DNA of 64,000 nt from a phage: the sequence record NC_101842.1. One strand, written 5' to 3'. Below the pieces are notes generated by a model, which ran no database searches, was not told where the DNA came from, and saw only the letters and a program-made list of their open reading frames with translations. Of this stretch, positions 23,757-43,132 are shown in pieces. Made by a program: the position numbers and the translations under genes. The stretch's first letter is position 1. Each line of letters begins with the position of its first letter.

Positions 23757-23785
23757 TTGACAACAAGGTTAATCATGGTATTATT
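23757..23785 (+). promoter_or_regulatory. sigma70-like promoter
   Basis: TTGACA then TATTAT-like -10 with 16-17-nt spacing. Confidence 0.5.
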
Positions 23786-25172: not shown

Positions 25173-25225
25173 TTGACAAGCTAACTTAAATCGATATAAT
25201 AAGCACATAAACGGGAAAACTTCCC
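25173..25225 (+). promoter_or_regulatory. sigma70 consensus promoter plus 5'-UTR hairpin
   Basis: TTGACA, 16 nt, TATAAT; hairpin GGGAAAACTTCCC. Confidence 0.6.
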
Positions 25226-39763: not shown

Positions 39764-40159
39764 TTACTGAAACAGTGCGGATAAATTACCTTCTGGTGGG
39801 AACTTATCTGCCAAAAACGGTGTTAGCACAGTAGCCTTCTGAAGATCTGGGGTCCACTCGTTGTTCAGAACATCCCAGTAGTACGCAATGTTGCTGTGTG
39901 GGTGCCGCATTACGAACTTTTTCCCTTCGTAGTCGTCTGAAACCTCTACAGAAGAAATAACAACAGAATCTTCAAGGGTTTCTTCATAGAAAGATCCCCC
40001 TTCAAATTTCCAACGAGATGCAAGAGCCCCTGCCTTGAACGCTGCAGATAACGGACTGTCGGCAAGAACATACATTTCTTGCACTCTGTCGCTGCGATCT
40101 TTGCTTCTTACGTTGTATACAGTATCTGAGCTATACTCAACACGGTATAGGCTTACCAT
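39764..40159 (-). CDS. hypothetical protein (paralog of 41966-42364)
   Basis: Shared block HPHSNIAYYWDVLNNEWTP vs HPDSRVKHYWNARTKTWTP. Confidence 0.6.
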   Translation of the reverse strand: MVSLYRVEYSSDTVYNVRSKDRSDRVQEMYVLADSPLSAAFKAGALASRWKFEGGSFYEETLEDSVVISSVEVSDDYEGKKFVMRHPHSNIAYYWDVLNNEWTPDLQKATVLTPFLADKFPPEGNLSALFQ

Positions 40160-40491
40160 TACCGCACCTCCTCAATAACTTCCACATCTGAACCTACCAC
40201 AAATGCAAAAGGACAGGTTTCATGAAAGACATCTGGATCGCCGCCAAGCTTGCTAACAATCTCTCCACCACTAATAAACACAAGCTCACCGATATTCATC
40301 AGATTGCTGAAATAGTACCCATAATGATTAAAGAATGCAGCAGGGTCAGGTAGACTGGTAGCCTCAAGCACTACATCGGTTGAGGTTACTTTCTTATCAT
40401 AACCTCTCGCCTTTTGAGATGCAAGATCTGCAGAATCCTCAGGAGACCGGAGATGCACAGGAATTGTTTCACCAATAAAGCGTACTTTCAT
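40159..40491 (-). CDS. hypothetical protein
   Basis: Start at internal ATG (MKVRFIGE); track ORF trimmed. Confidence 0.55.
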   Translation of the reverse strand: MKVRFIGETIPVHLRSPEDSADLASQKARGYDKKVTSTDVVLEATSLPDPAAFFNHYGYYFSNLMNIGELVFISGGEIVSKLGGDPDVFHETCPFAFVVGSDVEVIEEVR

Positions 40492-40495
40492 ATTA

Positions 40496-40759
40496 TCACC
40501 CAACAACCATAGCTTCAAAAGGAGTCATGAACGAATAAACGGCATCATCATCTGCTTCAGGGAATGCTCCCAAAGACTTCATATCTGAACCCTTGACAAA
40601 TACAAGGTTTTGATCAAAGGCTTCTTGGGGGTCAATCCGATACATATTTCGTAGAATATCGCTTACCTCCTCATCAAGAGGTGAGTATGCTGTGCACGTT
40701 TTTCCGATCAAGCTTTGAGAATCAGGGTATCCACCTGAAGTTTTAAAATAAACAATCAT
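40496..40759 (-). CDS. hypothetical protein
   Basis: ORF in array. Confidence 0.55.
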   Translation of the reverse strand: MIVYFKTSGGYPDSQSLIGKTCTAYSPLDEEVSDILRNMYRIDPQEAFDQNLVFVKGSDMKSLGAFPEADDDAVYSFMTPFEAMVVG

Positions 40760-40850
40760 ATAGTATCACCTCTGGTAAGAGATTGGGATTCCTTTCCCAC
40801 AAATAATTACAAATCTTCCTTATCGAGGAAGTATGCTAATCCAAGCAGGA

Positions 40851-41120
40851 TTATTCCTCTACAATCTCATACACATCAGGAGTTACAATCAATTCTTCTC
40901 CGTTACCCGGTGCAACAAACACCACCAAACCTTCAGGTGTGTGCTTTTTAGCCATCTCGATAACATCTTCTCGCAGAGCTGGCTCCATCAGATCAAAACC
41001 TTCACCCAGGGCATCACGAACCACCTTCATATAGTCCACTGGTTGTGCTTCAACAATCATGCCTTCAACCAGTCCACAGTTTTTGTCTGCCAGCTCAGTT
41101 TTGAATAATTTAATTTTCAT
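40851..41120 (-). CDS. hypothetical protein (MKIK-type N-terminus)
   Basis: ORF in array. Confidence 0.6.
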   Translation of the reverse strand: MKIKLFKTELADKNCGLVEGMIVEAQPVDYMKVVRDALGEGFDLMEPALREDVIEMAKKHTPEGLVVFVAPGNGEELIVTPDVYEIVEE

Positions 41121-41150
41121 TTAGAGGTCTCCTCAATTATTTGATATTAA

Positions 41151-41252
41151 TAGCCGTAACCTAACACATTAACTACAACTGCGATTGCAAACATAATTTC
41201 AAAGCATGCAATCTCTACATTTGGGACTAATTTCTTAATCACACCCATTGTA
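41151..41252 (-). CDS. small hydrophobic peptide (33 aa)
   Basis: Not in ORF track; MGVIKKLVPNVEIACFEIMFAIAVVVNVLGYGY; GAGG RBS. Confidence 0.4.
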
Positions 41253-41257
41253 GCACC

Positions 41258-41575
41258 TCATTCTCCAAAGTCAATCTTTACTTTGCCTTTCCCCTTACCT
41301 TTCTTTCCACCGCATTTAGCCAGCTGACGTGCTGCAACATCTACCATACGGTCAGTTGCCTCGTAAGCATCACTACCTTTAGCCTTGGCAATAACTTCTT
41401 TTCCAGAATTGTCAAAAATGAACGCCATAACTTCCTGGTGATCATTTTCAACTTTTACACTCACACGTGCATAGTTGGCAGAGGGGTGCAAACGCTCCAG
41501 TTTAGACATTTTGTTGGAAATGAAAGACACCATACCTTCAGTGATTTCTACGTTGCCAGTGATTTCAATTTGCAT
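41258..41575 (-). CDS. hpf: ribosome hibernation promoting factor / RaiA-family protein
   Basis: Aligns along its length to E. coli HPF as I recall it: MQIEITGNVEITEG...KLE...VKVE...AKAKGSDAYEATDRMVDVAARQLAK; own promoter and 5' hairpin. Confidence 0.8.
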   Translation of the reverse strand: MQIEITGNVEITEGMVSFISNKMSKLERLHPSANYARVSVKVENDHQEVMAFIFDNSGKEVIAKAKGSDAYEATDRMVDVAARQLAKCGGKKGKGKGKVKIDFGE

Positions 41576-41594
41576 AACGTGTTCCTTTTAAAGA

Positions 41595-41651
41595 AGAGGG
41601 AACCAAACCCTCTTTGAAAACAATGATACTAAATCTGAAGCGTTGTGTCAA
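41595..41651 (-). promoter_or_regulatory. sigma70-like promoter plus 5'-UTR hairpin for hpf
   Basis: On - strand: TTGACA (41651-41646), 17 nt, TATCAT (41628-41623); hairpin AGAGGG-loop-CCCTCT at ~41595-41613. Confidence 0.55.
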
Positions 41652-41657
41652 CAGTTT

Positions 41658-41948
41658 TTACAGATTGTTGTCGATAGTTTTTAAAATATCCACAGCAAGA
41701 TCTGCCATTTTTCGAACATACTCTGCAAACTCAACAGGATCCTTGATCAAAGAATTCACAGGGTCGTACCCTAGAGCGTTCAAAATGGCTGCAGCATCTA
41801 CAACCTTCTCATCATTTGCGAAGATCTCTCCATCAAACTTGTAGGTCCATTTTGAGTCAATCTTGGCAGGGAAGGATTGGTCAACGCTTGTTACACCATC
41901 CTTTTTAAACGCTCCGGTGTTATCAGTGTCCAGAACTAAATCCATCAT
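41658..41948 (-). CDS. hypothetical protein
   Basis: ORF in array. Confidence 0.6.
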   Translation of the reverse strand: MMDLVLDTDNTGAFKKDGVTSVDQSFPAKIDSKWTYKFDGEIFANDEKVVDAAAILNALGYDPVNSLIKDPVEFAEYVRKMADLAVDILKTIDNNL

Positions 41949-41965
41949 GTTAGTACCCCACTGTT

Positions 41966-42364
41966 TCAGTTTAGCTTTTCTTCAACAACCCCATAGCTCG
42001 GGACAGAGTCAAGAGCTTTCTGGTTTAAAAGTGGTGTAGCAGAATCTGCAAACGGTGTCCAAGTTTTTGTTCTGGCATTCCAGTAATGCTTCACTCTGGA
42101 ATCTGGATGCACTATAACAAAAACTTTTTCACTTGTCAACACATTAATTTCTTCTACACCCTTGCTGATAATTTCTCCGTCATAGCCCCCAGTCTGGTAT
42201 CCTTCGTACCAGGTTCTTGCATAGGCATAGCCAGCTTGCCAGCATGCAGCCTCCTCCGAGGTGGAGACTACGTAGAAGTCTTTCTCAAATTCTGGAATAC
42301 GCCCTTGCTTTATGCTCCAAGCTCCGCGAATTTTCATTGTAACTTTGAACAGTTTATTTTTCAC
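41966..42364 (-). CDS. hypothetical protein (paralog of 39764-40159)
   Basis: Shared blocks with 39764-40159. Confidence 0.6.
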   Translation of the reverse strand: MKNKLFKVTMKIRGAWSIKQGRIPEFEKDFYVVSTSEEAACWQAGYAYARTWYEGYQTGGYDGEIISKGVEEINVLTSEKVFVIVHPDSRVKHYWNARTKTWTPFADSATPLLNQKALDSVPSYGVVEEKLN

Positions 42365-42376
42365 AACGGTTACCCA

Positions 42377-42631
42377 TCACAGCTCTACAATATCTGCATC
42401 TGACCCTACCCCAAAGGCATAATAGGACTCTTCCCCGAAATAATATTCAGGTGCACCAGCGGTGATCAGGTCTGCTCCTAAGATAAACACTACGTTGTGG
42501 CCTACATAACTGTGATGTTGCCGAACAGGATCATCCCACGGCAACCCTTCAAAGTATACCGCAGGAACGACCTTTCCCTTCAGGAAGGATTGTCCCAAGT
42601 AGACGTTAGAATCAAGAATTTTAACCTTCAT
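42377..42631 (-). CDS. hypothetical protein (MKVK paralog family, member 1)
   Basis: MKVKILDS...GADLITAGA. Confidence 0.6.
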   Translation of the reverse strand: MKVKILDSNVYLGQSFLKGKVVPAVYFEGLPWDDPVRQHHSYVGHNVVFILGADLITAGAPEYYFGEESYYAFGVGSDADIVEL

Positions 42632-42848
42632 GATTGTCCTCCACTATCTCTACATCCTCACCTAGGGCAAAGTTGTAGGTCCACTGACTGTCAAAGCATT
42701 CCTGAGATGCACCAGCGGCAATAAGATCTGCCCCTTTTATTTTTAAAAGGTCGGGGTAATCTTCGTTAGGGACAGCAGTAAACACTTTCCCCACTAAGGG
42801 CTCCTGACCAATATAGAAGCTTGAATCTAAAACTTTAACTTTCATCAA
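42621..42848 (-). CDS. hypothetical protein (MKVK paralog family, member 2)
   Basis: MKVKVLDS...GADLIAAGA; tandem with member 1. Confidence 0.6.
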   Translation of the reverse strand: MMKVKVLDSSFYIGQEPLVGKVFTAVPNEDYPDLLKIKGADLIAAGASQECFDSQWTYNFALGEDVEIVEDNHEG

Positions 42849-43132
42849 CGGTCTCCATCAGGTGGTTGTGGGACGTAAACACTGTTACGAATATCGTCCG
42901 CAGTATAGTAATAAGTGTCTCCAACCCTATCTCTGGCTGCAATGTACTCTGCTATACCAATAAGTGCCATTGATTTGGTGGCGTATCTTCCCCACTCGTT
43001 AGCTCCCCAGTAGAATTTAGACCAGTAAGGAATAAGACCGAACAAATATACCTTTTGACGAACTTCCCAGTAAGTGCCTTTTCCGACAAGTTTAAACTCG
43101 ACTTCACTACTGTTAATCTTTTTCATTATCAA
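42845..43132 (-). CDS. hypothetical protein
   Basis: ATGA overlap. Confidence 0.6.
   Translation of the reverse strand: MIMKKINSSEVEFKLVGKGTYWEVRQKVYLFGLIPYWSKFYWGANEWGRYATKSMALIGIAEYIAARDRVGDTYYYTADDIRNSVYVPQPPDGDR

Follow-up and report, generated by a model that had tools for sequence, protein, structure and literature searches.

An HPF/YfiA-family protein encoded by rV5-like phages: conserved promoter, strong purifying selection and a possible RaiA-like role at the host ribosome

We analyzed a 64,000-nucleotide stretch of a phage genome (sequence record NC_101842.1), referred to below as the window. A 105-aa coding sequence of the HPF/YfiA family lies on the minus strand at 41258..41575, where the ORF list places an ATG start and a stop codon at 41258..41260; it is the orthologue of rV5 ORF144. 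The initial annotation treated this gene and its promoter as a discovery, but both are already known as rV5 ORF144 and P144: the rV5 record (GenBank DQ832317) annotates ORF144 as 'sigma 54 modulation factor' with a 'Sigma70-type promoter; P144' directly upstream, and a 2019 paper described the gene as a phage HPF. Work by Kropinski et al. predicted 33 sigma70 promoters in rV5 (Kropinski et al., 2013; PMC3606486). Mizuno et al. listed HPF in rV5 and five relatives, and reported that the rV5 protein clusters with gammaproteobacterial sequences (Mizuno et al., 2019; Nat Commun 10:752; PMC6375957). The rV5-type HPF was mentioned again with five new rV5 isolates (Mathieu et al., 2020), and we found no later functional studies or transcriptomes on the Vequintavirus HPF in the literature. 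Our analysis adds the strength of selection on the gene, a copy in a sister lineage, an audit of the ribosome-contact residues, scores below the equivalog cut-offs and an uneven conservation of the 5' hairpin.

Around the gene, the 3-kb stretch 40000..43000 shares 99.9% identity with CarlMeissner and MaxTheCat, both Vequintavirus phages, and 95-99% with about a hundred coliphages of the rV5 type. The window genome is closest to the first two rather than to rV5 itself, and its HPF has 100% identity with the protein that both annotate as 'ribosome hibernation factor'. The rV5 product gp144 (ABI79209) is encoded by the same gene and is 99% identical, the single difference being H21 where the window has N21; the two phages agree in length, tail, promoter hexamers, spacing, hairpin and neighbours of the gene. 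We also observed that 18 records deposited as 'Campylobacter phage' with C. jejuni as host (MG065635-MG065690) are 96-99% identical to the rV5-like coliphages at this stretch. The host label of these records looks doubtful.

The product had been described from the sequence as resembling HPF/YfiA along its length, and BLASTP reproduces the motifs on which this was based (MQ.ITGN.VEITE, KLE, VKVE, G.D.Y.A.D and ARQL.K), with 39/92 identities to E. coli HPF (42%, E 4e-18); identity to RaiA is 22%. Among cellular sequences, enterobacterial short HPFs match best (42-45% identity), and the best PDB sequence matches are solved E. coli HPF chains, 2rql being found at E 5.7e-12. The profile search proposed in the initial annotation returned a significant family match. 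The Pfam profile PF02482 (Ribosomal_S30AE) scores 48.9 bits (gathering score 23.7) and spans residues 3-88 of the protein (profile positions 1-83/88), and the NCBIfam profile TIGR00741 (HPF/YfiA family) scores 46.1 bits with a cut-off of 40.9. More specific profiles were also compared. The short-HPF equivalog (NF007780/PRK10470) gives 56.2 bits, below its 125-bit cut-off, and the RaiA equivalog (NF007654/PRK10324) 18.2 bits, below its 158-bit cut-off. Long HPF is defined by S30AE followed by a C-terminal dimerisation domain, in about 180-190 aa; we found no such domain in the 105-aa phage protein, in which S30AE is the sole Pfam match above gathering score. By both sequence and fold, the phage protein thus belongs to the broad HPF/YfiA family, since profile score and fold, the two defining features tested, both agree with that family. 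It cannot be classed as a short-HPF orthologue because of its equivalog score and its length, nor as RaiA because of the low RaiA equivalog score, nor as long HPF because the second domain is absent. Among phage proteins it forms its own PHROG family (phrog_12469), separate from phrog_8990, which holds other phage S30AE proteins and is matched weakly (8.9e-07).

The predicted structure agrees with this assignment. An AlphaFold2 model built on a 24-sequence alignment has a mean pLDDT of 81, with strands at residues 2-7, 33-43, 46-55 and 60-67 and helices at 13-29 and 70-89. The fold check suggested in the initial annotation therefore returned the beta-alpha-beta-beta-beta-alpha topology, carried by a folded S30AE core of residues 1-88 (41312..41575, minus strand; block pLDDT 85-92). 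Foldseek aligns the model with two solved HPFs, 4hei from V. cholerae and 6h4n_x from E. coli, at TM 0.90-0.93 and rmsd 1.0-1.1 A, and the 36 top PDB fold matches are HPF, RaiA or plastid pY without exception. The nearest well-studied relative is E. coli short HPF (YhbH, 95 aa; 2rql, 6h4n), whose fold superposes at about 1 A rmsd and whose sequence is 42% identical over 92 residues, but which stops shortly after helix alpha-2; the phage protein has 10 more residues and carries a Lys/Gly tail. E. coli RaiA (YfiA/protein Y, 113 aa; 4v8i, 1n3g) has in common with it both the fold and a C-terminal extension past alpha-2, which in RaiA goes with 70S rather than 100S hibernation. The RaiA tail, however, ends acidic (NFVEEVEEE) whereas that of the phage is Lys/Gly-rich, and overall identity is only 22%. 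HPF-fold proteins of other large enterobacterial myoviruses, the jumbo phages GAP32 (Cronobacter, K4F6Q6) and PBECO4 (Escherichia, L7TII8), are more distant (TM 0.65-0.77, 24-25% identity) and belong to phrog_8990, as opposed to phrog_12469 here. The GAP32 protein lies elsewhere in the published tree, which implies an independent acquisition (Mizuno et al., 2019).

The Lys/Gly-rich C-terminal tail noted at first sight is confirmed as CGGKKGKGKGKVKIDFGE. It comprises residues 89-105 (GGKKGKGKGKVKIDFGE; 41261..41311, minus strand) and is predicted to be disordered (pLDDT 44-51), so that 16-17 disordered residues (89/90-105) follow the last helix in the model. Its charge is about +3.8, and the core is acidic (pI 5.6). 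The extension has 17 residues compared to about 23 in RaiA, its sequence is unrelated, and a similarity between the two tails is not demonstrable; at a pLDDT below 50, the model does not give its path. The tail ends hint at a resemblance (VKIDFGE in the phage, VKDANFVEE in RaiA, AKWDY in the sister lineage described below), over a stretch too short for a test, and we take this as no more than a lead. Within the genus the tail is nearly invariant, and the sister lineage, 64% identical, has another basic tail (SKSKGIDKRTAKWDY). Genus-wide, we counted 4 non-synonymous alleles over the 17 tail codons versus 7 over the 88 codons of the core; the tail shows fewer synonymous changes than the core and relatively more amino-acid changes. 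Tail codons 99-103 carry no synonymous change within the genus.

Some records differ in this part of the gene. In Murica (KT001917), the GGGGAAAGG run of the tail has lost 1 nt, which shortens the protein to 99 aa, and in APECc02 (KR698074) the alignment to the phage HPF covers residues 1-88 only. Either a sequencing error in a homopolymer or a natural variant lacking the tail might account for this. A clade formed by V18, A6-1 and Murica has an extra Asn codon at codon 9 (GNNVEIT, 106 aa), which restores the spacing of E. coli HPF; the same clade has the weakened 5' hairpin described below.

We found the gene in 118 phage records, where its label is 'ribosome hibernation factor', 'sigma 54 modulation factor', 'RaiA' or 'hpf'. 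Several of the records MT884008-MT884011, OR062525 and OR062530 call it 'ATP-dependent protease La type I', a mis-annotation, and in the A6-1 record the 'sigma 54 modulation factor' label has been given to ORF146, two genes further on. An uncultured sister lineage of Vequintavirus, with no counterpart in the phage isolate collection, is represented by the Logan/ENA contigs L002..L005 (15.7-125.8 kb), and its contigs with the syntenic HPF copy measure 124-137 kb; over a 5-kb stretch, alignments at 77-83% identity cover about 28%. This lineage has a 64%-identical 103-aa HPF copy at the syntenic position, with a TTGACA -35 element placed alike, and keeps the order of the small genes around it, including a PF27050 (Phage_P22_Y8K6) gene downstream. 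An exhaustive search of a 1.8-billion-sequence protein library gave 24 matches at E <=0.001. The only matches above 45% identity among them are sister-lineage phage proteins, and no cellular protein more than about 45% identical to the phage HPF was found in this library. A word-indexed protein search returned only five close relatives, and an IMG/VR single-protein scan added just two more rV5-like contigs. One candidate relative of 1160 aa (P0006) was rejected as a repeat-driven artefact. A tblastn survey of other phage HPFs, with a Firmicutes-type HPF (P0021) as query, gave mostly short unannotated fragments, perhaps bacterial DNA.

Across genus members, dN/dS of the gene is 0.04-0.07 with dS up to 0.6, which points to strong purifying selection. 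Judged from the sequences, HPF is an old, retained resident of the phage lineage and not a recent capture, because it is found in 118 records, has a syntenic 64%-identical copy in the sister lineage and has no closer cellular sequence. These data bear on the idea that the gene is a functionless passenger captured from a host. We found no published phenotype, which would agree with a passenger; yet the dN/dS values contradict it, the number of records, the same locus in the sister lineage, the conserved promoter and the absence of any cellular sequence above about 45% identity, indicative of an old capture, all speak against it too, and we consider it extremely improbable.

Upstream of the gene, the sequence TTGACA-17-TATCAT (rV5 P144; 41623..41651, minus strand) agrees with the sigma70 consensus at 11/12 positions, taking as criterion a -35 TTGACA and a -10 TATAAT placed 16-18 nt apart upstream of a same-strand gene. 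The preceding gene stops at 41658 and the TTGACA follows directly. In the 64-kb window, TTGACA-N16-18-TATNAT occurs nine times where 0.17 would be expected, and each site has the orientation of the genes around it; as they are enriched and all so oriented, we regard the nine sites as a genuine feature of the genome. Both P144 hexamers are invariant in the genus. Contig L002 of the sister lineage keeps the -35 element and reads AATTAT at the -10. A Shine-Dalgarno-like AAGGA lies 7 nt upstream of the ATG (41583..41587, minus strand), where the Murica record annotates a ribosome binding site.

The 5' hairpin mentioned in the initial annotation was found as a 7-bp stem-loop (AAGAGGG/CCCUCUU; 41614..41594, minus strand; -9.9 kcal/mol) that begins 1-2 nt past the predicted transcription start. 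Taken alone, it folds better than most shuffled sequences (z = -2.45; 5/200 shuffles fold equally well), and the fold of its 63-nt context is unremarkable (z = -0.44). It is retained in rV5, FV3 and Aya; in the V18/A6-1/Murica clade an uncompensated G>A drops it to -5.0 kcal/mol, it is missing in L002, and no compensatory change maintaining it was seen in the compared relatives. The stem-loop was rejected as a general promoter feature, as only three of the nine consensus sites have one near the predicted 5' end, those with long leaders of at least 47 nt: 23757..23784 (plus strand), 25173..25200 (plus strand) and the HPF promoter. Consensus promoters with 29-36-nt leaders have none. It was also rejected as a terminator of the upstream gene, the T-run being too weak for the terminator scan and rV5 having none annotated there. 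In E. coli, a 5'-terminal stem-loop of the ompA type shields mRNAs from 5'-end-dependent attack by RNase E. By analogy, the position of the HPF hairpin at the extreme 5' end of the predicted transcript would match this protective geometry.

Two small genes follow HPF on the same strand. ORF145 (41147..41248) encodes a 33-aa hydrophobic peptide (MGVIKKLVPNVEIACFEIMFAIAVVVNVLGYGY) present in the ORF list and matching phrog_15151 over its full length. It is conserved in the genus, annotated in rV5, FV3, V18 and Murica, and absent from L002. ORF146 (40851..41120) encodes 89 aa of phrog_11868, a family of unknown function. As the Shine-Dalgarno of ORF145 (GAGGTG) overlaps the HPF stop codon, and the terminator scan gives no terminator-like site before a hairpin at 40831..40815, the first downstream of the promoter, P144 probably heads a three-gene unit of HPF, ORF145 and ORF146, with ORF146 last. 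The promoter had been called dedicated to HPF. Its sequence and conservation stand, while exclusive use by HPF is improbable, ORF145 and ORF146 being probably driven from it too. Another sequence resembling a sigma70 promoter, TTGACT-16-TACAAT (extended TG; 41247..41274, minus strand), sits in the last HPF codons (K-I-D-F) and over the ORF145 ATG. It is conserved across the genus, with TATAAT in phage Aya, and could drive ORF146. The lack of synonymous change in the tail may be due to this promoter-like site in its last codons.

To relate the protein to the ribosome, we used the contacts described in a cryo-EM preprint (10.1101/2025.10.07.680626), in which K80, R83, K87 and K91 are basic contacts common to HPF and YfiA, and K26, Q29/Y30, T53, H55, E60, H62 and D75 also contribute. 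The same preprint describes a RaiA tail that heads for the RMF site, a course not clearly seen for the C-terminus of short HPF. Three of the four residues of the basic track on helix alpha-2 are retained in the phage protein (R83, K87 and K91); K80 is replaced by Val. K25 (the K26 equivalent), E60 and D75 are retained as well, so that equivalents of K26, E60, D75, R83, K87 and K91 of E. coli short HPF are found in both proteins. The contact substitutions relative to E. coli HPF are K80V, T53F, H55F, Y30L and K89G (phage V80, F52, F54, L29 and G89). Position 80 is Thr in the sister-lineage copy, and V, T or Q are also seen there in some cellular family members, so the change at K80 does not decide the matter.

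Experimental data on the rV5 protein come from Mizuno et al. (2019), who expressed it from pBAD24 in E. coli NM522. Peptides were found in the crude extract and were absent from purified 70S and 100S particles, and expression caused no discernible change in 100S. The ribosomes were pelleted through a 500 mM NH4Cl cushion from cells at an OD600 of 1, and the host carried hpf, raiA and rmf of its own; dissociation in salt and an unsuitable growth phase are explanations of the negative result that the authors considered possible. Because of the salt, the growth stage and the host's own factors, we take this negative on ribosome association as weak but real. The roles suggested in the initial annotation, that the protein could dimerise, silence or protect ribosomes, are thus still speculative.

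One way to read these results is that the protein has kept the S30AE fold and lost stable ribosome binding in favour of another target, for example as a decoy for RMF or a host factor, or through RNA binding mediated by the tail. Its absence from purified ribosomes while present in extracts would fit, as would the five substituted contacts and the combination of an acidic core (pI 5.6) with a basic tail, unlike the host proteins. On the other side, a high-salt wash is expected to strip hibernation factors, a cause that the authors themselves considered possible, R83, K87, K91, K25, E60 and D75 are all retained, the residues V, T and Q at position 80 also occur in cellular members, and strong purifying selection acts over the whole core. 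We regard such a change of target as doubtful, though worth keeping in mind.

We favour a role as an early-expressed RaiA-like factor that would hold idle host ribosomes as protected 70S particles through the decoding channel, and give this reading a probability of roughly 0.5. Soon after infection begins, host RNA polymerase would transcribe HPF, with ORF145 and ORF146 probably on the same transcript; no expression timing data for rV5-type phages were found in the literature. The S30AE core would then enter the channel between the 30S head and body of vacant host ribosomes, in the fashion of HPF and RaiA, with K25, E60, D75, R83, K87 and K91 as predicted contacts. From helix alpha-2, the 17-residue tail would exit toward the RMF/anti-Shine-Dalgarno site, as the RaiA tail does, where it may add rRNA affinity and clash with RMF. 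Idle ribosomes would thereby be shielded as 70S monomers, neither locked in host-controlled 100S dimers nor degraded, and a usable ribosome pool would outlast the takeover, above all in slow-growing or stationary hosts. The extended basic tail would make the protein more RaiA-like (70S, RMF-incompatible) than HPF-like (100S-promoting), and the lack of a 100S increase in the work of Mizuno et al. (2019) is compatible with a factor that does not promote dimers. Several observations weigh against the RaiA-like role: the rV5 protein was seen in extract and not in purified 70S or 100S; the contacts K80V, T53F, H55F, Y30L and K89G are altered; the scores lie below both the HPF (56 vs 125 bits) and the RaiA (18 vs 158 bits) equivalog cut-offs; and the tail differs in the sister lineage, shows relatively more amino-acid changes within the genus than the core and has no demonstrable likeness to that of RaiA.

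Alternatively, the protein could be a true HPF-type factor that, with host RMF, drives 70S into 100S dimers and so silences host translation during shut-off. Its core is indeed nearer to short HPF than to RaiA (56 vs 18 bits, 41-42% vs 22% identity), and the best fold matches are HPFs, including the HPF of the E. coli 100S particle 6h4n. Yet no change in 100S could be discerned when the protein was expressed in E. coli (Mizuno et al., 2019), the protein is 10 residues longer than HPF with a tail that would fill space near the RMF site, and it scores below the HPF equivalog cut-off. Global silencing would also hit the phage's own Shine-Dalgarno-dependent genes. Taken together, we judge a dimer-promoting role unlikely.

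The genomic setting of the gene is as the initial annotation had it: the neighbours are all small ORFs without a Pfam hit, in PHROG families of unknown function. We found no translation-related neighbours, tRNAs or Rfam families in the 64-kb window. Five flanking genes, all on the minus strand (39764..40159, 40496..40759, 41966..42364, 42377..42631 and 42621..42848), have no assigned function and are paralogous, two of them falling in phrog_7379 and two or three in phrog_5009; this suggests local duplication in the small-gene cluster. A variant of the RaiA-like role can be considered in this setting, in which the protein would shield ribosomes against host defence, that is, against ribosome-directed host toxins. 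An early-type promoter placed in a cluster of small genes without known function would suit it indirectly, as would the reported protection of S. aureus ribosomes from RNase R degradation by HPF (PMC8406268). No sequence feature points to a particular defence system, however, and the neighbours lack informative family hits, which leaves a defence shield decidedly unlikely in our estimate.

Returning to the RaiA-like role, Mizuno et al. (2019) proposed that a viral HPF might compete with its cellular homologues and prevent dimers. A related and tentative possibility, which we hold with little confidence, is that the phage protein is more than a plain copy of host HPF and acts as an anti-hibernation or shielding factor, whose tail would fill the RMF/anti-Shine-Dalgarno region, exclude RMF, and dissolve or prevent 100S particles. 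If so, protected 70S monomers would be reusable, and rV5-type phages would have an advantage on stationary-phase or toxin-armed hosts. Working out the function would show in what way a lytic phage makes use of the host's own ribosome-parking mechanism. This bears on the infection of slow-growing and stationary bacteria by rV5-like phages, which are widely used in therapy and biocontrol cocktails.
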